Source of the DNA: Escherichia coli
GTDB lineage: Bacteria > Pseudomonadota > Gammaproteobacteria > Enterobacterales > Enterobacteriaceae
Length of the DNA stretch: 64,000 bases
NCBI RefSeq assembly: GCF_016903815.1
Contig: NZ_CP069973.1
Strand: one strand, 5' to 3'
Every line of letters starts with the position of its first letter. Positions within the stretch are counted from its first letter, which is position 1. This document shows positions 2,688-49,735 of the stretch, one piece after another. Under the pieces are notes generated by a model that had not been told where the DNA came from, made no database searches, and worked only from the letters and a program-made list of their open reading frames with translations. Both the position numbers and the translations under genes were made by a program.

Positions 2688-2761
2688 TGCTTTTCTTCCC
2701 GAGTTGAATTGAGGACGTGATGTCCCTGTGAGTCATTTTTTAAAACTAACTTGCCTGGAGT

Positions 2762-3373
<612 letters not shown>

Positions 3374-4387
3374 TTACAGGTACATTCAGTTTCTTTAGTA
3401 AATCGGAAGTAAATAAGATACGTAGCACATATCAATATAGGTTAAACGAGATTAAGTTTTAATTATTTCGATTAGGTTTAAATTTATGTTTTTTTCCTGA
3501 TGAGTGTCAATATGTGAACAGAAAAGGAATTCCATGGTTAAGTCAATATTTACAAAAAATGAAAATATTGCTTTTTTGATAAGAAGAAAAAGACATTCAG
3601 TTTCATAAGGTTATTGGCAATATAACGTTCAATTCTTACTTGCATTTTATATTAGCCAGGAACTTTGCCCTGAGGTGTTAGGAATAGTCTTAATGTGTTG
3701 TGTAATGGACTAGTAAAAAAACAAGTTTAAATGATAAGAAATAGAATATAAAACTATCATGAGTTATAATTAAAGATGATTTTCCAATCAGTAAGGTGTT
3801 TTAATGGATTAACATGCCGCACAAAATGGTTATGGGTGTTCATCCCAATAAGTGATGAAAAATTAAACAGGTGTAAGTACGTCATCTGTCCGGTAAGCCC
3901 CCTAAGAGCCAAATTAAGTGAAGTTAAACGAAGACTGCCAGTTGTCACAGGAACGATGGCCTCTTTGCCAGGGCACTGCATTCAGTCATCTGTGCGCGTT
4001 ACTCTAACTGGCACTCGAACGTCGGCGATGGGGTTACCGGTGGATCAGGCCGTTCCTGTGGCGTAAACGTTTTTATGTCAGTACCAACAGATTTACCACA
4101 TTTATCATCTTAACCGTTTGAGTGTAAATGCAGGCTGCGTCGCAAAGGGAGGAAACTGAGTGGCGTGTTCAGTCTAAAAGAGAGTTGATGCCAGCATACA
4201 GGGCGCACCTGGTCAACAAGTCAACATTAATATAATGGAATATTCGGAGAGAAACGTCAGGCAGTTGACCTTAAATGAACAGGAAGATACATCCCCAGGA
4301 AAATTAATGCTGGTGTAATAAATACACCAACATTAATCCGGTCTGATTATTAATCAGACAAATATCGTTAATTCGTCGAATTTTGAA

Positions 4388-5719: not shown

Positions 5720-6862
5720 TTAATCCATTAACGGAAACCAGCCAGTTCCTTTCGATGCCTGAATTTGATCCCATAGTTTATCCGGAATGGTTAATTCAGG
5801 AACAAGTTGTGGATTAAGGGTTGTTTGAATTTCATGGCTTCTACCTGATTCAGCTAAAGTCACCCATTCTGGATTTATCACCAGCCCTTTACCGATCGCA
5901 ACAAGTGGCAGGCCAGCGGAAATTGCTTCTTGAGCCTGAGACGGTGTGCGTATTTTACCTGCAGCGATTACCGGCACTCTGCCTGCAATATGATTTAAAA
6001 TCAATTCAATAGTTCGGGGGCCATTTGGCGACTCAACAGGGTAGCTATCGTTAATACTGACCAGCGAGGTATGTATATACGAAATACCGGATGAAATGAG
6101 TCGATCAAGGAGTTTATAAGTATCCTCTATCCGCAGCCCCCCTGTTACAGATTCTTCAGGAGATATTCTGTAACCGATAGCAAAGCGCTTTGTCGCATAT
6201 TCATAGACTACATTTTTTACTTCCTGTAATACGGCCAGCGGGAAGCGCATACGTCCTTCAAGATCTCCTCCCCATCGGTCATTACGCTGGTTAAATAGAG
6301 GGGAGAAGAAATTCTGCAGAAGGAATCCGTGCGCACCATGAAGTTCAACGCCATCAAAACCTGCTTTAATCGCCCTTTTTGTGACATCTCCGAATGCTCT
6401 AATGGTTTCCTGAATTTCGTTTTCAGTCATTTCCCTGCTTTGTACCACTCTCTTCATAAAGTCACCAGATTTTACGCTTGATGCGCTGGCACTAATAACA
6501 TCGTTATTTGGCACAAGCTCCGGGATGGCTTTATTACCAGCGTGGAAAATCTGCAAAATAGCCGGAGCACCGCCACTTTTGGCTGCAGCTGCTAACTTTT
6601 CAAGGCTGTTAATGAAACGGTCGTCATACGCGGCAAATTCATGAGTAAACCCAATGCCGCTTGGCGTGACATAGGTGCATCCTGTTATTACTAAACCAAC
6701 ATTTTGTGAGCGACGTTTATAAAATTCGAGTTCTTGCTCAGAGATGGTTCCATCAGGATTAGCTGACCAGGTTGTCATAGGAGCCATAACGATACGATTA
6801 CGTAGCTTTATTTTTTCTGTCAGCATAAAAGGAGAAAACAATGATGGGTGTTTATTTGTCAT
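5720..6862 (-). CDS. Old-yellow-enzyme family NADH:flavin oxidoreductase
   Basis: 380-aa ORF; N-terminal LFSPFMLTEKIKLRNRIVMAPMTT motif typical of OYE/NemA-like FMN reductases; GAGGT 6 nt upstream of the ATG. Confidence 0.8.
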   Translation of the reverse strand: MTNKHPSLFSPFMLTEKIKLRNRIVMAPMTTWSANPDGTISEQELEFYKRRSQNVGLVITGCTYVTPSGIGFTHEFAAYDDRFINSLEKLAAAAKSGGAPAILQIFHAGNKAIPELVPNNDVISASASSVKSGDFMKRVVQSREMTENEIQETIRAFGDVTKRAIKAGFDGVELHGAHGFLLQNFFSPLFNQRNDRWGGDLEGRMRFPLAVLQEVKNVVYEYATKRFAIGYRISPEESVTGGLRIEDTYKLLDRLISSGISYIHTSLVSINDSYPVESPNGPRTIELILNHIAGRVPVIAAGKIRTPSQAQEAISAGLPLVAIGKGLVINPEWVTLAESGRSHEIQTTLNPQLVPELTIPDKLWDQIQASKGTGWFPLMD

Positions 6863-7035
6863 AACAATACCTCAAATGTTTATCTGATTTTAATGCGTAT
6901 AATCTTAATAAGTTGAGTTGCTACTTTTTGATGCTTTTTTTCCTTTAATAGAATTCTTTTTGAGTAATTTTATTATTGTTGTGTAGTCAATAAAGGATAA
7001 ATGTCAGGGAGATAAGGAATCTCCCTGTAAGATTA

Positions 7036-7956
7036 TTACAAATGTGTTTTATAAAAAGGAATTAATTTTTCGAGTGCCTGTTTCACAGGTTCTGGCTTAT
7101 CATACAGGTCGTAATGTGAATAACCTTCAACCACGACCAGCTCTTTATGTTTTGAGGCAGCGCGGCCAATAATTTCGCAGCCGTCACGGTAGGCACCAAA
7201 TGCGCCCACTCTATCGCCCACCACAACCATTATTGGTTGAGTTAACAGGACTTCTGCAAGATGAAATGCATCCCAACCCACGGCAACAGTCTGATGTGAG
7301 AATAGCGAACGATTTACCCCATTAGGTGCACAGCCTCGTGGCGAACGATAATATTCTGTGGCTTCAAAAAGGTCTATTTCTGTTAATCCCGCTTCAAGAG
7401 CTGCATCCGGAGAAGAGGGGAGTAAATCATCTACGCGAAGTTTTGCGCCGTTAGCTTCGTCTGTTCTTTGTTGCGCCATCGCTTCGAGTGCTCCGATAGG
7501 ATTAAACGCTGTAAATCCCTCACGCATAAGACGCCCGTAGTTTGCACCCGTGACAGTACCAATAGCTTTAATTCGACGTTCTGTCATTGCGGCATTAATG
7601 GCATATCCACCTCCACCACAAATACCCAGTACACCAATACGCCCGGCATCAACGTAAGGTAAGGTGGTAAGGTAATCAACGACAATGCTGAAGTCTTTTA
7701 CTCGCATTGTTGGATCTTCCAGATAACGCGGTTCTCCACCGCTGCTTCCCTGAAAACTGGCATCAAAAGCAATGACGATAAAGCCAGCTTTTGCCAGGGC
7801 GGCACCATACACACTACCCGATGTCTGTTCTTTGCAGCTTCCAATTGGATGGGCGCTGATAATGGCAGGATACTTTTTTTCACTATTAAAATCGTCAGGG
7901 AAATAGATATCAGCAGCTATATCCCAGTAAGTATGTTTTATCGAAACAGTTTTCAT
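7036..7956 (-). CDS. Alpha/beta hydrolase (dienelactone-hydrolase-like)
   Basis: 306-aa ORF; GICGGGGYA nucleophile-elbow-like motif; same strand as and upstream of the OYE gene. Confidence 0.7.
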   Translation of the reverse strand: MKTVSIKHTYWDIAADIYFPDDFNSEKKYPAIISAHPIGSCKEQTSGSVYGAALAKAGFIVIAFDASFQGSSGGEPRYLEDPTMRVKDFSIVVDYLTTLPYVDAGRIGVLGICGGGGYAINAAMTERRIKAIGTVTGANYGRLMREGFTAFNPIGALEAMAQQRTDEANGAKLRVDDLLPSSPDAALEAGLTEIDLFEATEYYRSPRGCAPNGVNRSLFSHQTVAVGWDAFHLAEVLLTQPIMVVVGDRVGAFGAYRDGCEIIGRAASKHKELVVVEGYSHYDLYDKPEPVKQALEKLIPFYKTHL

Positions 7957-8112
7957 TTCAAGCTCCGGGGATTTGCCTAAACAGATTTAAATATCATTTC
8001 TATTATCCGCAACTGGCATTCGTGTTCATATCGAGAACGGCGTAATAGTATGACTTGTATTGGTTATCATCAATGGTCTAATATCTATCACAGTGTTAAG
8101 TTAAGGTTTACA

Positions 8113-9039
8113 ATGATGAAAATAGAGCCTTCAATTTTGCCTTCTCTTGCCTGGTTTGCGCTTATTGTTCGTGCCGGCAGTTTTTCCAGAGCCGCTTCTG
8201 AAATGGGTATTACGCGGGCCGCATTGTCCCAGAATTTAAAATCTCTTGAGGAACGTCTTAACACCAAGCTGATATACCGTACGACCCGCAATATGTCGCT
8301 TACTGAGGAAGGACAGCGTCTGTATGAAGTGCTGGTGTCGGCTTTGGGGCAAATTGATGATGCTTTGAAAGATGTTGGTGATACCCAACTTGAACCTACA
8401 GGCCTGTTGAGAATAAATTCCTCCCGTGTTGCAGCACGGATGCTTGTTGAGCCTCATATTGGCGAGTTTCTTACTCGTTACCCCAAAACAAAGATAGAAC
8501 TCATTATGGATGACGGTTTATCTAACATTATTGCGGACGGCTGTGATGTGGGCATACGTCTTGAGCAAGGACTGGATGAGCATATGACTGCCGTTCCTGT
8601 TTCTCCGCTTATTAAACTGGTTACTGTGGCATCGCCAGATTATTTAAAAGAACACGGTATTCCTGAAACGCCTCAGGAACTGAGTAACCATAATTGCCTT
8701 CGGTTGCGGCATAAAAGTAGCGGTGCACTCTCTGCATGGGAGTTTTCTAATGTTGTGGGGGGTAATGAAGAGTTCGAAATAGAGGTTTCAGGTAAGTATA
8801 TTTCTAATGATGACGAAAGCATGATACGAATGGCGCTGAATGGAACGGGTATCATTCAACATCTGGATTTTGCAATCGCTGAACATATCAATGCGGGCAA
8901 GTTACAGCCGATTCTTGAGGATTGGGCCGTTTCATTTCCTGGATTTTATATATATGTTTCATCACGGGTGAGAATGCCCTCTAAAGTTCGTGCTTTTATT
9001 GATTTTATGGTGGAGAAAAGAGTAAAAATAGAAAGTTAA
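8113..9039 (+). CDS. LysR-family transcriptional regulator
   Basis: N-terminal HTH (LAWFALIVRAGSFSRAASEMGITRAALSQNLKSLEERLN); start set at the internal MMKIEP after AAGG; divergent from the hydrolase gene. Confidence 0.8.
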   Translation: MMKIEPSILPSLAWFALIVRAGSFSRAASEMGITRAALSQNLKSLEERLNTKLIYRTTRNMSLTEEGQRLYEVLVSALGQIDDALKDVGDTQLEPTGLLRINSSRVAARMLVEPHIGEFLTRYPKTKIELIMDDGLSNIIADGCDVGIRLEQGLDEHMTAVPVSPLIKLVTVASPDYLKEHGIPETPQELSNHNCLRLRHKSSGALSAWEFSNVVGGNEEFEIEVSGKYISNDDESMIRMALNGTGIIQHLDFAIAEHINAGKLQPILEDWAVSFPGFYIYVSSRVRMPSKVRAFIDFMVEKRVKIES

Positions 9040-9121
9040 TGATGTGTGTCAGAATATCGGTAAGAAGAATGGCGCAATCGTGAGGATACGTTTATTCATA
9101 ATAAATCTCCTGAAAGTTTAG

Positions 9122-12045
<2,924 letters not shown>

Positions 12046-12595: not shown

Positions 12596-15500
12596 ATGTC
12601 ACGTTATAAAACAGGTCATAAACAACCACGATTTCGTTATTCAGTTCTGGCCCGCTGCGTGGCGTGGGCAAATATCTCTGTTCAGGTTCTTTTTCCACTC
12701 GCTGTCACCTTTACGCCAGTAATGGCAGCACGTGCGCAGCATACGGTTCAGCCACGTTTGAGCATGGAAAATACCACAGTAGCTGCTGATAATAATGTGG
12801 AGAAAAATGTCGCGTCGTTTGCCGCAAATGCCGGGACATTTTTAAGCAGTCAGCCAGATAGCGATGCGACACGTAACTTTATTACCGGAATGGCCACAGC
12901 TAAAGCTAACCAGGAAATACAGGAGTGGCTCGGGAAATATGGTACTGCGCGCGTCAAACTGAATGTCGATAAAGAATTCTCGCTGAAGGATTCTTCGCTG
13001 GAAATGCTTTATCCGATTTATGATACGCCGACAAATATGTTGTTCACTCAGGGAGCAATACATCGTACCGACGATCGTACTCAGTCAAATATTGGTTTTG
13101 GCTGGCGTCATTTTTCAGGAAATGACTGGATGGCGGGGGTGAACACCTTTATCGACCATGATTTATCCCGTAGTCATACCCGCATTGGTGTTGGTGCGGA
13201 ATACTGGCGTGATTATTTGAAATTGAGCGCCAATGGTTATATCCGGGCTTCTGGCTGGAAAAAATCGCCGGATGTTGAGGATTATCAGGAACGCCCGGCG
13301 AATGGCTGGGATATTCGTGCTGAGGGCTATTTACCCGCCTGGCCGCAGCTTGGCGCAAGCCTGATGTATGAGCAGTATTATGGCGATGAAGTCGGGCTGT
13401 TTGGCAAAGATAAACGCCAGAAAGATCCACATGCGATTACCGCTGAAGTGAATTACACGCCAGTGCCTCTTCTGACCCTGAGTGCCGGGCATAAGCAGGG
13501 CAAGAGTGGTGAGAATGACACTCGCTTTGGCTTGGAAGTTAATTATCGGATTGGCGAACCTCTGCAAAAACAACTCGATACAGACAGCATTCGCGAGCGT
13601 CGAATGCTGGCAGGCAGCCGCTATGACCTGGTTGAGCGTAATAACAACATCGTTCTTGAGTACCGCAAATCTGAAGTGATCCGTATTGCTCTGCCTGAGC
13701 GTATTGAAGGTAAGGGCGGTCAGACGGTTTCCCTGGGGCTTGTGGTCAGCAAAGCAACACACGGACTGAAAAATGTGCAGTGGGAAGCGCCGTCATTACT
13801 GGCTGAAGGTGGCAAAATTACCGGTCAGGGTAGTCAGTGGCAAGTAACGCTCCCGGCTTATCGTCCAGGCAAAGACAATTATTATGCGATTTCAGCAGTT
13901 GCCTACGATAACAAAGGCAATGCCTCGAAACGTGTGCAGACAGAAGTGGTTATTACCGGAGCTGGTATGAGCGCCGATCGCACGGCGTTAACGCTTGACG
14001 GTCAGAGCCGTATTCAAATGCTTGCTAACGGTAATGAGCAAAAGCCGCTGGTGCTGTCTCTGCGCGACGCCGAGGGTCAGCCAGTCACGGGCATGAAGGA
14101 GCAGATCAAGACTGAACTAACCTTCAAACCGGCTGGAAATATTGTGACTCGTACCCTGAAGGCCACTAAATCACAGGCACAGCCCACACTGGGTGAGTTC
14201 ACCGAAACTGAAGCAGGGGTGTACCAGTCTGTCTTTACGACCGGAACGCAGTCAGGTGAGGCAACGATTACTGTTAGCGTTGATGGCATGAGCAAAACCG
14301 TCACTGCAGAACTGCGGGCCACGATGATGGATGTGGCAAACTCCACCCTGAGCGCTAACGAGCCGTCAGGTGACGTGGTTGCTGATGGTCAGCAAGCCTA
14401 CACGCTGACGCTGACTGCGGTGGACTCCGAGGGTAATCCGGTGACGGGAGAAGCCAGCCGCCTGCGACTTGTTCCGCAAGACACTAATGGTGTTACCGTT
14501 GGTGCCATTTCGGAAATAAAACCAGGGGTTTACAGCGCCACGGTTTCTTCGACCCGTGCCGGAAACGTTGTTGTGCGCGCCTTCAGCGAGCAGTATCAGC
14601 TGGGCACATTACAACAAACGCTGAAGTTTGTTGCCGGGCCGCTTGATGCAGCACATTCGTCCATCACCCTGAATCCTGATAAACCGGTGGTCGGCGGTAC
14701 GCTTACGGCAATCTGGTCGACAAAAGATGCCAATGACAACCCTGTGACCAGCCTCACGCCGGAAGCGCCGTCATTAGCGGGTGCCGCTGCTGTTGGTTCT
14801 ACGGCATCTGGCTGGACAAATAATGGTGATGGGACGTGGACTGCGCAGATTACTCTCGGCTCTACGGCGGGTGAATTAGAAGTTATGCCGAAGCTAAATG
14901 GACAGGATGCGGCAGCAAATGCGGCAAAAGTAACCGTGGTGGCTGATGCGTTATCTTCAAACCAGTCGAAAGTCTCTGTCGCGGAAGATCACGTAAAAGC
15001 CGGCGAAAGCACAACCGTGACGTTGGTGGCGAAAGATGCACATGGCAACGCTATCAGTGGTCTTTCGTTGTCGGCAAGTTTGACGGGGACCGCCTCTGAA
15101 GGGGCGACCGTTTCCAGTTGGACCGAAAAAGGTGACGGTTCCTATGTTGCTACGTTAACTACAGGCGGAAAGACGGGCGAGCTTCGTGTCATGCCGCTCT
15201 TCAACGGCCAGCCAGCAGCCACCGAAGCCGCGCAGCTGACTGTTATTGCCGGAGAGATGTCATCAGCGAATTCTACGCTTGTTGCGGACAATAAAACTCC
15301 AACGGTTAAAACGACGACGGAACTCACCTTCACCGTGAAGGATGCGTACGGGAATCCGGTCACCGGGCTGAAGCCAGATGCACCAGTGTTTAGCGGTGCC
15401 GCCAGCACGGGGAGTGAGCGTCCTTCAGCAGGAAACTGGACAGAGAAAGGTAATGGGGTCTACGTGTCGACCTTAACGCTGGGATCTGCCGCGGGTCAGT

Positions 15501-31618: not shown

Positions 31619-33652
31619 ATGACAGACCTTTCACACAGCAGGGAAAAGGACAAAATCAATCCGGTGGTGTTTTACACCTCCGCCGGACTGATTTTGTTGT
31701 TTTCCCTGACAACGATCCTGTTTCGCGACTTCTCGGCCCTGTGGATTGGCCGCACGCTGGACTGGGTTTCTAAAACCTTCGGTTGGTACTATCTGCTGGC
31801 GGCAACGCTCTATATTGTCTTTGTGGTCTGTATCGCTTGTTCGCGTTTTGGTTCGGTGAAGCTCGGGCCAGAACAATCCAAACCGGAATTCAGTCTGCTG
31901 AGTTGGGCGGCGATGCTGTTTGCTGCCGGGATCGGTATCGACCTGATGTTCTTCTCCGTAGCCGAACCGGTAACGCAGTATATGCAGCCGCCGGAAGGCG
32001 CGGGTCAGACGATTGAGGCTGCGCGTCAGGCGATGGTCTGGACGCTGTTTCACTACGGCTTAACCGGCTGGTCGATGTATGCGCTGATGGGCATGGCGCT
32101 CGGATACTTTAGCTATCGTTATAATTTGCCGCTCACCATCCGCTCGGCGCTGTACCCGATCTTCGGTAAACGGATTAACGGGCCGATTGGTCATTCAGTG
32201 GATATTGCAGCGGTAATCGGCACCATCTTCGGTATTGCCACTACGCTCGGTATCGGTGTGGTGCAGCTTAACTATGGCTTGAGCGTACTGTTTGATATTC
32301 CTGATTCGATGGCGGCGAAAGCGGCACTGATCGCCTTGTCGGTGATCATCGCAACAATCTCTGTCACCTCCGGTGTCGATAAGGGCATTCGCGTGTTATC
32401 GGAACTCAACGTTGCGCTGGCGCTGGGGTTGATCCTGTTCGTGCTGTTTATGGGCGACACCTCGTTCCTGCTTAATGCGCTGGTGCTGAACGTTGGCGAC
32501 TATGTGAATCGCTTTATGGGCATGACGCTCAACAGTTTTGCCTTCGACCGTCCGGTTGAGTGGATGAATAACTGGACGCTCTTCTTCTGGGCATGGTGGG
32601 TGGCATGGTCGCCGTTTGTCGGCTTGTTCCTGGCGCGTATCTCGCGTGGGCGTACCATTCGCCAGTTCGTGCTGGGCACGTTGATTATTCCGTTTACCTT
32701 CACGCTGTTATGGCTCTCGGTGTTCGGCAATAGCGCGCTGTATGAAATCATCCACGGCGGCGCGGCATTTGCCGAGGAAGCGATGGTCCATCCGGAGCGC
32801 GGCTTCTACAGCCTGCTGGCGCAGTATCCGGCGTTTACCTTTAGCGCCTCCGTCGCCACCATTACTGGCCTGCTGTTTTATGTGACCTCGGCGGACTCCG
32901 GGGCGCTGGTGCTGGGGAATTTCACCTCGCAGCTTAAAGATATCAACAGCGACGCCCCCGGCTGGCTGCGCGTCTTCTGGTCGGTGGCGATTGGCCTGCT
33001 GACGCTCGGCATGCTGATGACCAACGGGATATCCGCGCTGCAAAACACCACGGTGATTATGGGTCTGCCGTTCAGCTTTGTGATTTTCTTCGTGATGGCG
33101 GGGTTGTATAAATCTCTGAAGGTAGAAGATTACCGCCGTGAAAGTGCCAACCGTGATACCGCGCCGCGACCGCTGGGGCTTCAGGATCGCCTGAGCTGGA
33201 AAAAACGTCTCTCGCGCCTGATGAATTATCCAGGCACGCGTTACACTAAACAGATGATGGAGACGGTCTGTTACCCGGCAATGGAAGAAGTGGCGCAGGA
33301 GCTGCGGTTGCGCGGCGCGTACGTGGAGCTAAAAAACCTGCCGCCGGAAGAGGGACAACAGTTGGGGCATCTGGATTTGTTGGTGCATATGGGCGAAGAG
33401 CAAAACTTTGTCTATCAGATTTGGCCGCAGCAATACTCGGTGCCGGGCTTTACCTACCGCGCACGTAGCGGGAAATCGACCTACTACCGGCTGGAAACCT
33501 TCCTGTTAGAAGGCAGCCAGGGCAACGACCTGATGGACTACAGCAAAGAGCAGGTGATCACCGATATTCTCGATCAGTACGAGCGGCACCTTAACTTTAT
33601 CCATCTCCATCGTGAAGCGCCGGGCCATAGCGTGATGTTCCCGGACGCGTGA
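31619..33652 (+). CDS. betT: BCCT-family choline transporter
   Basis: 677-aa polytopic membrane protein with the BCCT Trp-rich signature (WTLFFWAWWVAWSPFVGLFLARISRGRTIR). Confidence 0.92.
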   Translation: MTDLSHSREKDKINPVVFYTSAGLILLFSLTTILFRDFSALWIGRTLDWVSKTFGWYYLLAATLYIVFVVCIACSRFGSVKLGPEQSKPEFSLLSWAAMLFAAGIGIDLMFFSVAEPVTQYMQPPEGAGQTIEAARQAMVWTLFHYGLTGWSMYALMGMALGYFSYRYNLPLTIRSALYPIFGKRINGPIGHSVDIAAVIGTIFGIATTLGIGVVQLNYGLSVLFDIPDSMAAKAALIALSVIIATISVTSGVDKGIRVLSELNVALALGLILFVLFMGDTSFLLNALVLNVGDYVNRFMGMTLNSFAFDRPVEWMNNWTLFFWAWWVAWSPFVGLFLARISRGRTIRQFVLGTLIIPFTFTLLWLSVFGNSALYEIIHGGAAFAEEAMVHPERGFYSLLAQYPAFTFSASVATITGLLFYVTSADSGALVLGNFTSQLKDINSDAPGWLRVFWSVAIGLLTLGMLMTNGISALQNTTVIMGLPFSFVIFFVMAGLYKSLKVEDYRRESANRDTAPRPLGLQDRLSWKKRLSRLMNYPGTRYTKQMMETVCYPAMEEVAQELRLRGAYVELKNLPPEEGQQLGHLDLLVHMGEEQNFVYQIWPQQYSVPGFTYRARSGKSTYYRLETFLLEGSQGNDLMDYSKEQVITDILDQYERHLNFIHLHREAPGHSVMFPDA

Positions 33653-33664
33653 TTGTTATTGCAT

Positions 33665-33703
33665 AAAACCGCGCCATGTCTGCATATGGCGCGGTTTCTC
33701 TTA
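33665..33703 (+). terminator. Rho-independent terminator after betT
   Basis: AAACCGCGCCAT-loop-ATGGCGCGGTTT perfect 12-bp stem followed by TCTCTT. Confidence 0.7.
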
Positions 33704-34528
33704 CCTCTTGATACGTTATATCTGTGTACAGTTAAGCCCTTAGTATCGATTGATGATTGCCAGGCAACAGATAATAAAAAAGAAAAGAACTATTGAAGCC
33801 CAAAACCTACGCTTGGACTGTTGTGAATGTTCAATAAGCTTAGTCTTATTTAATGTAAATATTGGTGCTAATTTGAAATGACGCTTTATTCATGGGAAAC
33901 GCGTAGCGCAAATCAACTAAAATCAATGTAACTGTTTGTTGTTTAAGGTTTAATTGTCTGTGTCTGATATTTTATTGATTGTTTTAAATATTGTTTTTAT
34001 TGTCATTGTTATAATGTTGGCTATCTATTGCTGAATGGATTCAGCCTTAAAAAGCAGGTTGTTAAGGGATAGGCATAGAGTAATGACGTGTATGCATAAC
34101 CAACATCTTTACTCATTATGTCATTGAATGTTGACGCTATGTGTTTATGAGGTTGAGGTATTTTCAGTTGATCTGGATTGTTAAATTCATATAATGCGCC
34201 TTTACTCATGAATGGGCGTCAATACGTAGTGGGAAATTATAAATATTGAAATAGTCCAACTACTTCTTTATTACCAAAAATGAGTATCTGAATTTTAATA
34301 TTGCATTCTTGCGTGATTATCTCCTGAGTTTGACTTGTGATTACCTTTTTAAGGTATTTAGCGTAACTGTTTTTGAGCGAGCATCAGAGGTAAAGATAAT
34401 CTTTTTGATAGTGATGTGGGATGTTATGCGTATGGCATCGCTGATGTTTATGGTTACCCCTTATGTGTGCTCAGGAATCCACAGGTAATCACTCATACTG
34501 AACAGCGATAAAAGATAAAGGTGTGTTC

Positions 34529-35617
34529 ATGAATTCATGTGATTTTCGTGTTTTTCTGCAAGAGTTCGGTACAACGGTTCATTTGTCATTGCCTGGTAGC
34601 GTATCCGAGAAAGAACGACTGCTACTCAAGCTGCTGATGCAGGGAATGTCTGTAACAGAAATATCACAGTACAGAAATCGCAGTGCAAAGACCATTTCAC
34701 ATCAAAAGAAACAGCTCTTTGAGAAACTGGGGATTCAGAGCGATATTACTTTCTGGCGGGATATTTTCTTTCAGTACAATCCGGAGATCATATCCGCCAC
34801 GGGTAATAATAGTCACAAATATATTAATGATAATCACTATCACCATATCGTCACGCCTGAAGCCATCAGTCTGGCGTTGGAAAACCACGAATTCAAACCG
34901 TGGATCCAACCGGTTTTCTGCGCGCAGACTGGGGTACTGACGGGCTGTGAGGTGCTTGTCCGCTGGGAACATCCACAAACGGGAATTATCCCACCGGATC
35001 AGTTTATTCCTCTGGCGGAGTCATCTGGTCTTATCGTCATAATGACTCGCCAGTTGATGAAACAGACTGCGGATATTCTGATGCCGGTAAAACATTTGCT
35101 GCCGGACAATTTCCATATTGGCATCAACGTCTCGGCGGGTTGTTTTTTGGCTGCGGGATTTGAAAAAGAATGCCTGAACCTGGTTAAGAAATTAGGTAAC
35201 GATAAAATCAAACTGGTTCTCGAGCTAACGGAACGTAACCCTATTCCGGTAACGCCAGAAGCCAGAGCGATATTTGACAGCCTTCATCAGCACAACATTA
35301 CCTTTGCGCTGGATGACTTTGGTACGGGTTATGCGACCTATCGTTACTTGCAGGCGTTCCCGGTCGATTTTATTAAGATCGATAAGTCATTTGTGCAAAT
35401 GGCGAGCGTGGACGAAATATCCGGTCATATTGTGGACAATATTGTCGAACTGGCGCGTAAGCCTGGTCTGAGTATCGTGGCGGAAGGGGTAGAAACCCAG
35501 GAGCAGGCGGATTTAATGATCGGCAAAGGCGTTCACTTTTTGCAGGGCTATTTGTACTCTCCGCCAGTACCGGGTAATAAATTTATCTCTGAATGGGTAA
35601 TGAAAGCAGGTGGTTGA
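34529..35617 (+). CDS. pdeL: c-di-GMP phosphodiesterase with N-terminal LuxR-type HTH and C-terminal EAL domain
   Basis: 362-aa product from MNSCDFRVF; LuxR HTH (LLMQGMSVTEISQYRNRSAKTISHQKKQLFEKL) and EAL-domain motifs (ELTE, DDFGTGYA). Confidence 0.9.
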   Translation: MNSCDFRVFLQEFGTTVHLSLPGSVSEKERLLLKLLMQGMSVTEISQYRNRSAKTISHQKKQLFEKLGIQSDITFWRDIFFQYNPEIISATGNNSHKYINDNHYHHIVTPEAISLALENHEFKPWIQPVFCAQTGVLTGCEVLVRWEHPQTGIIPPDQFIPLAESSGLIVIMTRQLMKQTADILMPVKHLLPDNFHIGINVSAGCFLAAGFEKECLNLVKKLGNDKIKLVLELTERNPIPVTPEARAIFDSLHQHNITFALDDFGTGYATYRYLQAFPVDFIKIDKSFVQMASVDEISGHIVDNIVELARKPGLSIVAEGVETQEQADLMIGKGVHFLQGYLYSPPVPGNKFISEWVMKAGG

Positions 35618-44339: not shown

Positions 44340-44607
44340 TACGCATTTGAAACGCCTGCAACGGTGAATAGTAAGAGATTTAAGCCCCAGGGAGTGGGGC
44401 AGCAATGGTTTGCTAATGAATGATCCTGAACTTTATAATCTCCCGGCATAATTTCCAGGGGATTATTTGAGAGAAATACACAAAAGTGAGTTTTAACAAA
44501 GGTATTTATCAAGCCATAAATGTGACCTGCTTTGGATAAAAAAGATTAAGCATCGAAAAACCAATGATCTTCTTGCTGATGGTTATCAACAGTAATTAAG
44601 ATGTGAT

Positions 44608-45048
44608 TTGTTTTTCCGTAATCGCGAAAATATTCTCATGACCATAAAAGAAAAAATCTCACAAAAATATCCCCATGCTTCCTTTTGTACTTTTGGCGAT
44701 TCAGCAGTGTTGGCCGATCACCTCGCAACGTTGATTGCGACTGGTGTTAAAACAGCTTCCTGTGGTTCGCTGGCGGGATGTATTGAAGACAACGCATTTC
44801 CGCTGATTGGTGAGTATAAGATTGTAGAAAATAGCCGTGGTGAGCCTGTCTGTGTTATCAGAGTGATTGGCCTGCATTTACTGCGCTTTTCTGATGTCAC
44901 CGCAGAGCTTGCCCGTAAGGAAGGTGAAGGTGACCTCAGTCTTGAATATTGGCGTAATGAACACCGTCGTTTTTTCCAGGCAGAAGGATGCTATTCACCA
45001 GAAATGGACGTTATCTTTGAAGAATATGCCCTTATTGACGTTGTGTAG
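44608..45048 (+). CDS. Small ASCH-domain-like protein (start may be the MTIKEK Met at about 44638)
   Basis: 146-aa ORF; no close match to recalled K-12 genes; the domain call is tentative. Confidence 0.5.
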   Translation: MFFRNRENILMTIKEKISQKYPHASFCTFGDSAVLADHLATLIATGVKTASCGSLAGCIEDNAFPLIGEYKIVENSRGEPVCVIRVIGLHLLRFSDVTAELARKEGEGDLSLEYWRNEHRRFFQAEGCYSPEMDVIFEEYALIDVV

Positions 45049-45298
45049 ATAACTATTTTTCTACGCGAAATAAGCTCACAAACATAAAGCATCGCTAATT
45101 TTGTTTATTTTGCTGTTTTTTACGTGATGATTGTCACACTTATTGTTACTGCCCGTTTTGTCCATATTTATAACCAAATTTTTAATAGCTGCCTGAAATA
45201 GGGCTGTTTATTCTGCATAAAAATATTCGAAAATTCTTATTCTCTCCAGCGCGCTAATTTGGGCGAACACTTCCTGACTACCCTGCAATGAGGCTGAA

Positions 45299-46285
45299 AT
45301 GATGAATAAACGTTTTGTTATCAATATGGTGTCTTCGCTGTTATTAGGCGCTGCGCTAATTTCTGCGCCGCTCCAGGCAGCGGAAAAAGTCGTGGTGAAT
45401 ATCTCTAAAGTCGATGGTATGCCGTGGTTTAATCGCATGGGCGAAGGTGTGGTTGAGGCGGGTAAAGCCTTTGGTGTTAATGCGTCACAGGTGGGGCCTT
45501 CAAGTACTGATGCTCCGCAACAAGTTAAAATTATTGAGGATTTAATCGCCCGTAAGGTTAATGCAATTACAATTGTGCCAAACGATGCCAACGTGCTGGA
45601 ACCGGTATTCAAAAAAGCGCGAGATGCCGGAATTGTGGTTCTGACCAACGAATCCCCCGGTCAGCCAAGTGCTAACTGGGATATCGAAATCATTGATAAC
45701 GAAAAATTTGCCGCTGAATATGTTGAGCATATGGCGAAACGCATGGGTGGCAAGGGCGGTTATGTGATTTACGTGGGTAGTTTGACCGTGCCGCAGCATA
45801 ACTTATGGGCTGACTTGCTGGTGAAATACCAGAAAGAGCATTACCCGGATATGCATGAAGTTACCCGCCGCATGCCGGTTGCCGAGAGTGTGGATGACTC
45901 ACGTCGTACCACACTGGACCTCATGAAAACCTATCCTGACTTGAAAGCGGTTGTCTCCTTTGGTTCAAACGGTCCGATTGGCGCGGGACGTGCAGTGAAA
46001 GAGAAACGGGCGAAAAATAAAGTCGCAGTCTATGGCATGATGATCCCTTCACAGGCGGCATCACTGATTAAAAGTGGTGATATCACCGAAGGGATTACTT
46101 ACGATCCGGCCTCTGCAGGTTACGCACTCGCGGCCGTCGCCAGCACGTTGCTGAAGGGTGAAGAGATCAAACCTGGATTAGAAATGGAGAATCTCGGTAA
46201 GGCCGACGTAGATATGGATAAGCGAATTATCCGTTTCCATAAGGTATTACTGGTCAACAAAGACAATATCGACTCACTTTATTAA
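45299..46285 (+). CDS. Periplasmic sugar-binding protein (RbsB/YtfQ/LsrB superfamily) of an ABC transporter
   Basis: 328-aa ORF with signal peptide (MMNKRFVINMVSSLLLGAALISAPLQA); C-terminus VLLVNKDNIDSLY resembles the LsrB/YtfQ ending. Confidence 0.8.
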   Translation: MMNKRFVINMVSSLLLGAALISAPLQAAEKVVVNISKVDGMPWFNRMGEGVVEAGKAFGVNASQVGPSSTDAPQQVKIIEDLIARKVNAITIVPNDANVLEPVFKKARDAGIVVLTNESPGQPSANWDIEIIDNEKFAAEYVEHMAKRMGGKGGYVIYVGSLTVPQHNLWADLLVKYQKEHYPDMHEVTRRMPVAESVDDSRRTTLDLMKTYPDLKAVVSFGSNGPIGAGRAVKEKRAKNKVAVYGMMIPSQAASLIKSGDITEGITYDPASAGYALAAVASTLLKGEEIKPGLEMENLGKADVDMDKRIIRFHKVLLVNKDNIDSLY

Positions 46286-46333
46286 TCCATTTCTTCGGGG
46301 CGAAAGCCCCGATTCTTATTGCCAGGGGATGCT

Positions 46334-47818
46334 ATGGAAACCTTCCTTTCCCTTCGTCATATCAACAAAACGTTTCATGCCACGCGAGCGCTGCGCGATG
46401 TTTCTCTCGACTTTATGTCGGGTGAGGTGCACTGCCTTGCCGGGCAAAACGGCTGTGGTAAATCGACGTTGATTAAAATTATGTCCGGTGTTTATCGCCC
46501 GGATGAGGGGGCGGAAATTACGCTTGGTGGGAAAAACTGGTCAAAGCTGACACCCGCCGCTTCGGTGGCGCAGGGGATTCTGGTGATTTATCAGGACCTC
46601 TCTTTATTTCCTAACCTGAGTGTCTGGGAGAATATCGCCGTGAATCACTATCACCACGGTCTGTTTGTTAACCGCCGTCGTCTGCGTGAGGTGGCGCAGG
46701 CGGCAATGACCAGTATTAACGTCACATTGCCACTGGATACGCTCGTTTCTGAGCTTTCAATTGCCCGCTGTCAGCTGGTGGCAATTTGCCGTGCACTGGC
46801 GCAGGACGCACGGTTGATCGTGATGGATGAACCAACCGCTTCGCTGACCCATCAGGAAGTGCAAGGGTTATTACAGGTGGTGCATCAATTGCGGGAACGC
46901 GGGATCTGCGTGGTCTTCGTCAGTCATCGTCTGGAAGAAGTGATGGAAGTTTCCGACCGTATTTCAGTGCTGAAAGATGGTGAGCTGGTCGGGACCTTTC
47001 CGGCTGCAGAGATGACCACAAAACAACTCGGTTTCCTGATGACCGGCCAGGAGTTTGAATATCAGGTGCGAGAGTTGTGGCAGGGAAAATCCAGCATCCC
47101 AGTGCTGGAGGTGCGTAATTTAAGTCGTCATGGGGAATATCAAAATATTAACTTGCGGGTGGAAGCGGGCGAAGTGGTGTCGATTGTTGGCCTGCTTGGT
47201 GCGGGGCGCACGGAATTATGTCTGAGTCTGTTTGGTATGACCCGACCGGATGCTGGCGAGATCCTCATCAACGGCCAGCTGGTTACACTGCATAGTAACC
47301 AGGACGCCATCCGCCACGGTATTGGTTATGTTTCGGAAGATCGCATGTCGCGCGGTTTGGTGATGGCGCAATCTATTGAAGACAACATCATTAGCACTGT
47401 TTTTCACAAGGTAAAAGATCGCTTCGGCTTTCTGAGTGAAGCTAAAGTGCGTGACCTGGTGGACAGGCTAATCAAGGCATTGACCATCAAAGTCTCTGAC
47501 CCACATCTCCCGGTGAATACGCTTTCTGGGGGTAACGCGCAGCGAGTATCGATCGCCAAATGGCTGGCGATTGGGCCACGACTGTTGATTCTCGATAGCC
47601 CGACTGTCGGTGTTGATATCGCCAACAAAGCAGGAATATACGGCATTATCAGCGATCTGGCGGCTCATGGCATTGCGGTATTGATGATCTGCGATGAAAT
47701 TGAAGAAGCGTGGTATCAAAGCCACCGGATTTTGGTAATGCAAAAAGGTCAGATCACCCATAGCTTCCTGCCTGACAGCAGTTCTCAGGCCAGGATTGCG
47801 GAGGTGGTAAATGGCTGA
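46334..47818 (+). CDS. ABC transporter ATPase with duplicated nucleotide-binding domains
   Basis: Walker A GQNGCGKST, LSGGNAQR signature, second NBD; start set at METFLSL after AGGGGA. Confidence 0.85.
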   Translation: METFLSLRHINKTFHATRALRDVSLDFMSGEVHCLAGQNGCGKSTLIKIMSGVYRPDEGAEITLGGKNWSKLTPAASVAQGILVIYQDLSLFPNLSVWENIAVNHYHHGLFVNRRRLREVAQAAMTSINVTLPLDTLVSELSIARCQLVAICRALAQDARLIVMDEPTASLTHQEVQGLLQVVHQLRERGICVVFVSHRLEEVMEVSDRISVLKDGELVGTFPAAEMTTKQLGFLMTGQEFEYQVRELWQGKSSIPVLEVRNLSRHGEYQNINLRVEAGEVVSIVGLLGAGRTELCLSLFGMTRPDAGEILINGQLVTLHSNQDAIRHGIGYVSEDRMSRGLVMAQSIEDNIISTVFHKVKDRFGFLSEAKVRDLVDRLIKALTIKVSDPHLPVNTLSGGNAQRVSIAKWLAIGPRLLILDSPTVGVDIANKAGIYGIISDLAAHGIAVLMICDEIEEAWYQSHRILVMQKGQITHSFLPDSSSQARIAEVVNG

Positions 47819-48782
47819 ACTGAAAAAACGCCATGAATTCTGGCTGGCATTACTGATTGTGGTGCTGTTTGTTGGCCTTGCCTGGCGCAGCGACGAGTTT
47901 CTGACATTCGGTAATTTGTACGATCTCGCCAATAACTATGCCATGTTGACTATTCTCGCCTGTGGTTTGTTTGTGGTGTTAATTTCCGGTGGGATTGATA
48001 TTTCGTTTCCGGCAATGACCATCATTGCGCAATACGGCATGGTGCTGCTGCTGCAAAAAATTGGTGGCAACTTTGCTGTTGCGTTTGCCCTGGCGGGCGG
48101 CATCGGCATTTTACTTGGCTTAATTAACGCCTTACTGGTTAATCGCCTACGGGTGCCGTCTATCATCATCACCATTTCGACGCTGAATATTTTCTATGGC
48201 CTGCTGTTATGGTTGAGTAAAGGTGTGTGGCTGTACGACTTTCCGCCGTGGTTTGAGCAGGGGGTAATGTTGTTCAAGTACACCGATGCTGACGGCTATG
48301 ACTATGGCCTTGGTCTGCCGCTGATCGCCATGATTACGGTGGTGCTGCTGACAGCGTTTATCATGAATTTCACCAGTGTAGGGCGCAAAATTTATGCCCT
48401 TGGCGGGAACCGTGAATCCGCCAGTCGCATCGGCTTTAGCGTGCTGAAACTGCAACTTTTCGTCTACGGCTATATGGGATTGATGTCTGGCGCTGCGGGT
48501 GTAGTGCAGTCGTGGACGGTGATGACTGTCGCCCCCGATTCTCTTCTGGGTTATGAGCTGACAGTACTGGCTGCGGTGGTGCTTGGCGGCACTAGTTTGC
48601 TCGGCGGGCGCGGCACGTTAACCGGTACTTTGCTCGGCGTGGTGTTGTTGGCAGTGATGCAAAACGGGCTAAATTTATTGGGAGTCTCGTCTTACTGGCA
48701 AACATTGATCACCGGCATCATCATCGTTGCCAGCATTAGCGCCACGGCGTGGAGTCAGCATCAGAACCGGAGTCTGCTATGA
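47811..48782 (+). CDS. ABC transporter permease
   Basis: 323-aa polytopic ORF; start overlaps the ATPase stop by 8 bp. Confidence 0.85.
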   Translation: MAELKKRHEFWLALLIVVLFVGLAWRSDEFLTFGNLYDLANNYAMLTILACGLFVVLISGGIDISFPAMTIIAQYGMVLLLQKIGGNFAVAFALAGGIGILLGLINALLVNRLRVPSIIITISTLNIFYGLLLWLSKGVWLYDFPPWFEQGVMLFKYTDADGYDYGLGLPLIAMITVVLLTAFIMNFTSVGRKIYALGGNRESASRIGFSVLKLQLFVYGYMGLMSGAAGVVQSWTVMTVAPDSLLGYELTVLAAVVLGGTSLLGGRGTLTGTLLGVVLLAVMQNGLNLLGVSSYWQTLITGIIIVASISATAWSQHQNRSLL

Positions 48783-49735
48783 AAAAATCGTGGCGTAATA
48801 ACGTTGAGTTTTACTTGATCGGCCTGCTGGTGCTAACTGTTGCCGCGTTCAGCATTACTATGCCGGAGATTTTCTGGTCGATAAGTAATTTCCAGTCCGT
48901 CGCTTCGCAAATGCCCGTGCTGGGCATTCTGGCGTTGGCTATGGCGGTGACCATGCTTTGCGGTGGCATTAACTTGTCAATTATAGCCACTGCTAACGCC
49001 TGTTCACTGGTGATGGCGTGGGTGGCGACTCAGTATCCACCGGGTATTGCTACGGTTGTCGCTACGCTGCTGGCGGGCGCTGGCGCGGCGGTGATAATCG
49101 GTTTATGTAACGGCGTATTGATTGCTGGTATTCGAGTGTCGCCAATTCTTGCAACACTCGGGATGATGACGTTGCTCAAAGGGGTAAATATTCTGGTGAC
49201 AGGCGGTAGCGCCATTGCCAATTATCCCTCATGGGTGCTGTGGTTGAATCATGCACAGTGGTTCGGTATTCCGCTACCGATGTGGTTGTTTGCCGCAGTG
49301 GCGCTGGGGCTGTGGATATTGCTGGAGAAAACGCCGCTCGGTAAATCCATTTATCTGATTGGTTCTAACGAACGAGCAACACTTTACTCCGGCATTAACA
49401 CTCGTCGGGTGCTGATTTGGGTTTATGTCATTTCCGCCTTGCTTTGTGCGGTAGCGGCATTTTTGATGATGTCGAAACTCAACTCGGCTAAGGCCTCTTA
49501 TGGCGAATCGTACTTGCTGGTGTCAATCCTCGCGGCAGTACTCGGCGGGGTTAATCCGGACGGCGGCAGCGGGCGGATAATTGGTATGGTGCTGGCGCTG
49601 TTTCTTCTGCAAATTATTGAAAGCGGCTTCAATATTCTCGGTATAAGCCCCTACCTGACGATGGCCTTATGGGGAACGTTGCTGCTCTGTTTCATTCAGG
49701 CTCGCGGCATGTTGGGGCTGGATCGGGTGGTTTAA
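48779..49735 (+). CDS. ABC transporter permease
   Basis: Polytopic ORF; start taken at MKKSWRNN, overlapping the upstream stop (ATGA). Confidence 0.8.
   Translation: MKKSWRNNVEFYLIGLLVLTVAAFSITMPEIFWSISNFQSVASQMPVLGILALAMAVTMLCGGINLSIIATANACSLVMAWVATQYPPGIATVVATLLAGAGAAVIIGLCNGVLIAGIRVSPILATLGMMTLLKGVNILVTGGSAIANYPSWVLWLNHAQWFGIPLPMWLFAAVALGLWILLEKTPLGKSIYLIGSNERATLYSGINTRRVLIWVYVISALLCAVAAFLMMSKLNSAKASYGESYLLVSILAAVLGGVNPDGGSGRIIGMVLALFLLQIIESGFNILGISPYLTMALWGTLLLCFIQARGMLGLDRVV

Follow-up and report, generated by a model that had tools for sequence, protein, structure and literature searches.

The 876-bp AT-rich gap between betT and pdeL in Escherichia coli is very probably a non-K-12 allele of the pdeL control region

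Introduction

What occupies a gap of almost nine hundred base pairs between betT and pdeL, in a neighbourhood where genes otherwise lie close together? The window, i.e. the whole stretch of 64,000 nucleotides of E. coli DNA that was analysed, contains such a gap at 33653–34528, between the end of betT (33652) and the ATG of pdeL (34529). The bistable expression of PdeL, a c-di-GMP “trigger” phosphodiesterase, determines whether E. coli cells are motile or sessile and how sensitive they are to phage. The mechanistic work so far has been done on the K-12 allele only, and the window carries the other major allele. The original prediction, made from the letters of the sequence, described the gap as an AT-rich loading zone for nucleoid proteins that might encode a small RNA or a long pdeL leader. 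It missed the known small open reading frame (sORF) yahV and the Cra and PdeL sites, for which the region is known.

Results and discussion

The gap and its boundaries

The gap was indeed long and AT-rich, as had been noted: 876 bp, with a GC content of 34.8% against a window mean of 49.7%. Of all 876-bp segments in the 64 kb, 0.65% were equally AT-rich, and the majority of these belonged to the betT-pdeL gap itself, in which the TpA frequency was doubled. With yahV left out, the counterpart gap in K-12 (874 bp) ranked first among the 48 gaps between coding sequences annotated in the same 50-kb neighbourhood, whose median length was 86 bp. The window was ~97% identical to K-12 over colinear stretches and is E. 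coli.

A terminator of betT had also been proposed at the start of the gap, where we observed a strong hairpin:

33666–33697, plus strand: betT intrinsic-terminator hairpin, arms AAACCGCGCCAT / ATGGCGCGGTTT

The repeat finder reported a 12-nt inverted repeat with 100% complementary arms and an 8-nt loop, to which the RNA fold added two pairs (-22.5 kcal/mol, z = -5.2). The tail after the hairpin was T-poor. Homology to genomes that carry ehaA at this locus, and to genomes that lack the bet genes, stopped just past this terminator.

Elements of the pdeL control region

The gap lies directly upstream of pdeL and downstream of the betT terminator, which is the K-12-type placement; the K-12 order betT-yahV-pdeL matched the window in both synteny and sequence identity. 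The K-12 region contains a Cra site, an adjoining Cra-dependent PdeL box (CDB), a distal Cra-independent box (CIB) and several predicted H-NS sites (bioRxiv 10.1101/2021.10.01.462762). We projected the primer table of the same report onto the window through the K-12/window alignment, and the published oligonucleotides for the CIB, for the Cra box with the CDB, and for the promoter all mapped onto it. The elements listed below, with where they lie and how far they are conserved or have diverged, were observed directly in the sequence of this allele.

33833–33850, no strand assigned: distal PdeL box (CIB), AATAAG-N6-CTTATT, placed by EMSA primers and alignment
34030–34045, no strand assigned: predicted Cra (FruR) box GCTGAATGGATTCAGC, overlapping the yahV stop codon TGA at 34032–34034
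34046–34058, no strand assigned: position of the proximal PdeL box (CDB), placed by the K-12 scrambled-site primers and alignment
34107–34137, no strand assigned: conserved block CTTTACTCATTATGTCATTGAATGTTGACGC, downstream of the Cra box and upstream of the promoter
34168–34195, plus strand: pdeL core sigma-70 promoter, TTGATC-16-TATAAT, 10/12 consensus matches, placed by primers
34202–34528, plus strand: putative pdeL 5′ leader of ~327 nt, placed by the promoter position

The K-12 EMSA fragment for the CIB corresponded to 33820–33885, and the CIB motif occurred once in the 64 kb, where 0.03 occurrences were expected. The Cra box matched the Cra consensus, RSTGAAWCSNTHHW, on the minus strand. 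Its first 15 bases, GCTGAATGGATTCAG, were invariant in all alleles sampled, those of the ehaA type included, and the 16th base was C or T. The K-12 Cra-box oligonucleotide in the primer table (bioRxiv 10.1101/2021.10.01.462762) begins TGCTGAATGGATTCAGT. The adjoining CDB was less well kept: it reads CTTAAAAAGCAGG in the window vs CTTAATGAGTGGG in K-12, with 9/13 bases retained and 4/13 different.

Two published primers assign the promoter to 34168–34195. The reverse primer of the fragment that binds RNA polymerase ends at CATATAATGCGCCTTTGCTC, just past TATAATGCGCC, and mutant primer 5032 retains TTGATC and TATAAT while replacing the surrounding bases. The core promoter was the most conserved block of the gap and lies ~335 bp before the pdeL ATG, a position that would put the start site near 34202 and give a leader of ~327 nt. 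The suggested long pdeL 5′ UTR thus gains indirect support from the place of the promoter and from its being the best-conserved block across alleles with an overall identity of ~73%. An H-NS-motif-like site was present at 34178, within the promoter spacer.

The suggestion of H-NS and Fis loading finds its support in the K-12 literature, and the window, which keeps the AT-richness and the mapped boxes, may be expected to behave alike. In K-12, H-NS competes with PdeL for the CIB in vitro, and the DNA between the CIB and the CDB carries sites for IHF and Fis (bioRxiv 10.1101/2021.10.01.462762; 10.1101/2022.01.19.477023). Strong derepression of pdeL was reported in an hns mutant (bioRxiv 10.1101/2021.10.01.462762). 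According to the literature, Cra and PdeL co-activate pdeL, and in the uropathogenic (UPEC) strain CFT073 pdeL is induced at 37 °C.

We are therefore confident that the betT-pdeL gap is the orthologue of the studied K-12 pdeL (yahA) regulatory region, in a non-K-12 allele with K-12-like organisation. The region is already known, and the result is a correct description of a known control region, mostly ordinary. Its length is the sum of the spacings between its elements (~180 + 200 + 165 + 327 bp), with no hidden conventional gene.

Alleles across Escherichia

A gap of the yahV type was present in 3729/5426 complete E. coli genomes, of which ~1720 resembled the window, 354 E. coli C and 1658 K-12. 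The window-type allele is thus carried by roughly one in three complete E. coli genomes, ST131-like strains included. For the comparison of more distant forms we assembled 21 distinct ehaA-less alleles from annotated genomes, from a PdeL scan of species-representative genomes, and from a metagenome scan that used the Cra-box-to-promoter pattern. One metagenome contig, L066, seemed to place a third cassette behind the promoter. It was rejected as a chimera of 2x coverage with a Firmicute-like penicillin-binding-protein gene.

The most informative alleles were those of Escherichia sp. E1V33 and E. coli SCPM-O-B-8794 (SCPM8794 below), whose gaps were ~72–77% identical to the window and whose pdeL DNA was 92–97% identical. 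In both, the bet genes are absent and ykgEFG (lutABC-like) lies upstream, and ~820 bp are still found with pdeL; on this comparison, the region belongs to pdeL and not to betT. Conservation was concentrated in islands, namely the CIB, ~50 bp surrounding the start of yahV, the Cra box, 34107–34137, the core promoter and the final ~100 nt of the leader. The block at 34107–34137 had 5 polymorphic columns per 25 among the 21 distinct alleles, and was kept in alleles that are 73% identical overall. The CDB was not kept in the E1V33 and SCPM8794 alleles.

A promoter module shared with ehaA

A different arrangement was observed in 1403/5426 complete E. coli genomes (26%), in which ehaA, a 4-kb autotransporter gene, stands between the two genes, 573 bp after betT and 141 bp before pdeL. 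The O157:H7 strain has this arrangement. Between its betT and ehaA lie the same Cra box and a homologous promoter, TTGATT-17-TATAATGCGC (nhmmer E = 9e-6, with exact pattern matches), and the module from the Cra box to the promoter measures 166 nt in the ehaA type vs 169 nt in the window. A PdeL-box-like palindrome, AATAAG-N6-CTTAT, is located 22 bp after the Cra box, where 0.01 occurrences were expected. Homology between the ehaA-type loci and the window ended at ~34236 and resumed at 34515, and the intervening 280 nt were unlike anything in the ehaA locus. Beyond E. coli, ehaA fragments separate the promoter block from pdeL in E. albertii, and in E. whittamii ehaA is followed by ~140 bp and pdeL. 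Read most simply, these sequences suggest that the “pdeL promoter” module is common to the ehaA and pdeL loci and was perhaps originally that of ehaA.

One could then read the length of the gap as the scar of a lost gene. The ancestral module would have driven ehaA, with pdeL 141 bp behind it, and the loss or replacement of the 4-kb ehaA would have joined the promoter to pdeL through 280–310 nt of unrelated filler. The gene order and module of O157:H7, the two outgroup species and the break in homology all favour this history. However, no remnant of ehaA, as protein or DNA, was found in the window gap by tblastn, blastn (word size 7) or nhmmer. Moreover, the ehaA-less form is itself old, as shown by the ~72–77% identical alleles of E1V33 and SCPM8794, so that the direction of change (loss of ehaA or its insertion) rests on the two outgroup species only. 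We consider this history possible, while leaning somewhat against it. It would account for the past of the region rather than for its present function, and is compatible with the gap being the pdeL control region.

A broader proposal, which we hold with still more reserve, is that a promoter controlled by Cra, PdeL and H-NS belonged ancestrally to an ehaA-pdeL unit. The K-12/UPEC form, with bistable pdeL autoregulation, a 327-nt leader and an unconstrained yahV, would date from the loss or replacement of ehaA. Were this tentative view correct, the EhaA adhesin in 26% of E. coli would be under the control of Cra and of the c-di-GMP-sensing PdeL through the Cra box and the palindrome. It would also mean that yahV matters, if at all, by transcription or translation across the H-NS platform and not via its peptide. 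We found no description of a promoter shared by ehaA and pdeL in the searchable literature, which is weak evidence of novelty.

The small open reading frame yahV

The original prediction saw no convincing ORF in the gap, which is wrong: the zone described there as A/T tracts is yahV, which is annotated in the K-12 RefSeq record and whose tagged protein has been detected (PMC6001520).

33960–34034, plus strand: yahV sORF, 24 codons and a stop, GTG start, placed by the homologous position of the K-12 annotation

The predicted product, MSDILLIVLNIVFIVIVIMLAIYC, should span the membrane with a single helix, by prediction. A TTG at 33954 is an alternative start, and a Shine-Dalgarno-like AAGG is located at 33945–33948, 11 nt upstream of the GTG. 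K-12 RefSeq lists “protein YahV” (b4730) at the homologous position, and RefSeq annotates no ORF there in genomes with the window-type allele. The K-12 peptide, VCDILLNVLNIVFIGIAIILVIIC, was detected by immunoblot via a chromosomal SPA tag (VanOrsdel et al. 2018, PMC6001520). By analogy, the YahV peptide is probably made in the window allele, too.

It is less clear that the peptide itself serves a purpose. YahV might be a functional single-pass membrane peptide, for instance a modulator of BetT or of signalling by osmotic stimuli or c-di-GMP, and some of the gap might then be there for its expression; an osmotic or motility role has been speculated upon (PMC9976479). The window ORF is intact, and agrees with that of K-12 in position, frame, GTG start, length and a stop codon inside the Cra box. 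Its product is identical to the K-12 peptide at 17/24 residues and differs at 7/24, and every replacement keeps the peptide hydrophobic throughout. The ORF start and the upstream AAGG also fall within a conserved island of ~50 bp.

The pattern of substitution argues against selection on the peptide. Between the window and K-12, yahV showed 8 nonsynonymous and 0 synonymous changes, whereas the codon differences between the same two strains were 3 nonsynonymous to 18 synonymous in pdeL and 1 to 37 in betT. An omega ≤ 0.2 was rejected at ~1e-3, and neutrality was not rejected (P = 0.14). The ORF diverged like its non-coding flanks (10.7% vs 10%). Start-codon changes, stops or frameshifts break it in the E1V33, L077, SCPM8794, L073 and L074 alleles, it is absent from the ehaA-type alleles, and YahV matched no Pfam or NCBIfam model. 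Because of the 8:0 ratio and the broken alleles, we read the YahV peptide sequence as not being under purifying selection, and conservation of the 5′ part of the ORF more likely concerns the DNA than the coding sequence. A functional YahV is an unlikely explanation of the gap. The sORF calls for caution, being a detectable small protein encoded in regulatory DNA with no sign of selection on its sequence.

The pdeL leader

The putative leader was best conserved over its last ~100 nt (34433–34528), which include the Shine-Dalgarno motif AAGGTG at 34518–34523. By a manual count on the alignment, these were ~93% identical in an allele whose distal gap was ~64% identical. As judged from the aligned distant alleles, this conservation is real. 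Compared with K-12, the proximal 300 bp of the gap contained 3 differences, and the low divergence extended into the 5′ coding sequence of pdeL. Because the likeness does not stop at the pdeL ATG, we rejected it as sufficient evidence of constraint; a recombination tract common to both strains may account for it.

A long leader with a conserved end could act as a structured cis-regulatory RNA (a thermosensor, a site of Rho attenuation or an sRNA target) and control pdeL after initiation. A predicted long hairpin at ~34373–34474 and a GAACA/UGUUC pairing beside the Shine-Dalgarno motif were kept in five alleles, and pdeL is thermoregulated in UPEC. However, the folding energy was unexceptional (z = -1.7 for the whole leader and +0.9 for the last 120 nt). 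In the consensus structure of the five alleles, which represent ~3 lineages, the covariation term amounted to -1 kcal/mol, with most pairs invariant. Thermoregulation is predicted equally by H-NS, and the recombination tract discussed above may explain the low divergence from K-12. We also considered a 10-bp perfect inverted repeat (34337–34346 / 34483–34492) as a functional element and rejected it, since divergent alleles do not retain it; in one allele a deletion of 24 nt removes one arm of the repeat, a further point against a structured leader. Taken together, the evidence makes such an RNA rather improbable.

Nature has split the leader at least in one strain, the urinary isolate Ec-U14-1, whose gap, the insertion aside, shares 100% identity with the window:

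34374–34382, no strand assigned: site of a natural IS1 insertion splitting the leader, with a 9-bp duplication

DNA curvature, other reading frames and small RNA

The original prediction had emphasised phased A/T tracts at 33950–34030, and intrinsically curved DNA built from helically phased tracts in that stretch would be another explanation of the region. The AT content is high, and the gap as a whole showed a weak 10.5–11 bp AA/TT signal (z = 2.3–2.6). In 33950–34034, however, periodicity at 10–11.5 bp, assessed for T, for AA/TT and for tract centres against shuffles, did not exceed z = 1.5, so that the phasing did not hold up. Instead, the stretch 33950–34030 showed a weak 3-nt T periodicity in the yahV frame (z = 2.3), and T occupied codon position 2 in 18/25 yahV codons; the T-richness tracks the coding frame. 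We regard curvature from phased tracts as very unlikely.

Further reading frames in the gap gave no gene.

34021–34209, minus strand: 62-aa reverse ORF, judged a non-gene

The earlier dismissal of this ORF was sound. It matched nothing in Pfam or NCBIfam and contains stops in the E1V33, SCPM8794, L077 and O157-type alleles. A 59-aa ORF at 34309–34488 likewise had no Pfam or NCBIfam match. Two candidate upstream ORFs in the leader, one of 13 codons (34208–34249) and one of 31 aa (34416–34511), were rejected, since in an alignment read by eye they lost the start or gained stops in E1V33 and SCPM8794.

The small RNA suggested for the gap fared worst. On the K-12 gap, a run-off microarray in vitro showed that E-sigma70 preferentially transcribed the forward strand (PMC3141248) and that E-sigmaS preferentially transcribed the reverse strand, with a ratio of 2.07 (PMC3141248, Table 1). 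The latter is the sole hint of extra transcripts, and can be set beside one site:

33978–34006, minus strand: antisense promoter-like site ATGACA-17-AACAAT inside yahV, 9/12 matches, a weak candidate for the reverse-strand transcription seen in vitro

Against an independent small RNA, sense or antisense, stand an Rfam scan of 33000–35200 on both strands that gave no match at E ≤ 1, a terminator scan that found no site inside the gap, promoter-like sites no commoner than in shuffles (3 found vs 3.9 expected), and no conserved block shaped as a stand-alone promoter-to-terminator unit, all of which make it highly improbable.

Proposed working of the region

Occupancy, start site and switching in the window allele would follow the K-12 work. 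Read from left to right, the betT terminator would be followed by an AT-rich H-NS silencing platform of ~500 bp. Within the platform would lie the CIB, the sORF yahV, translated but under no constraint, and the Cra box with its adjacent PdeL site. The sigma-70 promoter would lie ~120 bp beyond the Cra box, followed by the ~327-nt leader up to the pdeL Shine-Dalgarno motif. According to the K-12 model, Cra bound to its box would aid the binding of PdeL, and PdeL tetramers spanning both boxes would drive H-NS off the DNA and bring in RNA polymerase. C-di-GMP would turn PdeL off, so that the promoter becomes bistable. We must also note that the centre of the Cra box is located ~165 bp upstream of the putative start, unusually distant for a direct activator, which counts against the scheme.

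Since the CDB differs from that of K-12 at 4/13 positions, autoregulation may be quantitatively different in the window allele, and because the window allele has this diverged CDB, the parameters of the switch may differ between phylogroups. In ehaA-positive strains, the shared module would tie the expression of an adhesin in EHEC to central metabolism and to c-di-GMP, a link that can be tested directly. The evolution of yahV and the module shared by ehaA and pdeL go beyond the searchable literature and are testable, and in that sense modestly new.

Comparison with known systems

The closest known system is the K-12 pdeL (yahA) region studied by the Jenal and Schnetz laboratories, with the same flanking genes and the same order of elements. 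The CIB palindrome is shared, with one base different in its 6-nt spacer. The Cra box also differs by one base, and that of the window is the more perfect palindrome (GCTGAAT..ATTCAGC). The two alleles have the same -35 and -10 hexamers at the same distance from the ATG. The last 300 bp of the gap are 99% identical to the window, whereas the distal 576 bp have diverged by 10%.

The betT-ehaA region of the O157:H7 type shares the 15-base Cra-box core GCTGAATGGATTCAG and a homologous promoter at near-equal spacing. It differs in that it precedes ehaA, its palindrome follows the Cra box at 22 bp, whereas that of the window lies ~180 bp upstream of the box, it lacks yahV, and its leader is unrelated to that of the window.

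The H-NS-silenced bgl and proU promoters have silencing regions both upstream and downstream, and are relieved by specific anti-silencers. The pdeL promoter is likewise AT-rich on both sides and has a long transcribed leader, in which, by analogy, a downstream H-NS element may lie. It is also activated by site-specific competitors of H-NS and induced at 37 °C. Unlike in the bgl/proU type, the anti-silencer of pdeL is the product of the regulated gene, itself controlled by c-di-GMP.

ehaA between the promoter module and pdeL

In approximately 26% of complete E. coli genomes, ehaA, a 4-kb gene for an autotransporter adhesin, is located between pdeL and the promoter module composed of the Cra box and the sigma-70 core promoter. 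The loci compared were as follows.

Comparison loci (coordinates of each locus)
L003, 4269-4470: betT-ehaA gap of O157:H7
L049, 7725-12938: ehaA-type locus
L007, 99-1185: E. albertii NBRC 107761, promoter block to pdeL (conserved promoter block 99-165; pdeL from 1186)
L005, 146-2997: pdeL locus of Escherichia sp. E1V33
L006, 20-2871: pdeL locus of E. coli SCPM-O-B-8794

In the O157:H7 gap (L003 4269-4470), the 15-base core of the Cra box upstream of ehaA is identical to that of the window, a palindrome resembling the PdeL box lies at 4307-4323, and the promoter is homologous to the pdeL promoter of the window. These features suggest that the EhaA adhesin may be controlled by Cra and PdeL.

In E. 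albertii NBRC 107761, pieces of ehaA encoding EhaA residues 351-399, 1039-1116 and 1214-1327 sit between the promoter block and pdeL. These fragments are a decayed ehaA pseudogene, with an intact terminator hairpin on its 3′ side.

Sequence variation at the pdeL locus

The E1V33 and SCPM-O-B-8794 loci lack betTIBA and ykgH, and their pdeL regulatory region is directly preceded by ykgE/F/G-like genes, which encode CCG-domain, LutB-like and LUD-domain proteins. Identity to the window is ≈ 92-97% in pdeL and only 64-82% in the regulatory region.

Two haplotypes are common in E. coli, differing by 13.5% over 211 bp (window 33900-34110), and a third, the E. coli C type, is recombinant. The 24-codon yahV sORF is labelled ‘protein YahV’ in RefSeq only in the K-12 type; the C type has it as a ‘hypothetical protein’, and the window type carries no annotation for it.

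Two copies of the 10-mer CTTTACTCAT, at window 34107-34116 and 34200-34209, lie 93 bp apart and flank the core promoter. The second copy spans the inferred pdeL start site, and divergent alleles keep only the first. In the urinary isolate Ec-U14-1, whose gap is otherwise 100% identical, IS1 has entered the pdeL leader at window 34374-34382 with a 9-bp duplication and comes between pdeL and its regulated promoter.

Public records and the remainder of the window

Two contigs, one of 385 bp recorded as ‘Stappia sp.’ and one from a ‘Collinsella sp.’ MAG (L009, L014), also contain Escherichia pdeL or ehaA sequence, probably as contamination. In metagenome contig L066, the pdeL promoter is fused, exactly at the start site, to a Firmicute-like penicillin-binding-protein gene; this contig is probably a low-coverage chimera.

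Within the 64 kb, the sole other stretch matching the AT-richness of the betT-pdeL gap (GC ≤ ~36% over 876 bp) is 2727-4148. Four segments (5812-12044, 13472-17167, 18093-19634 and 44402-49663) had no counterpart in the K-12 neighbourhood by blastn and, as judged from this comparison, represent DNA that this strain has gained, by insertion or replacement, with respect to K-12.
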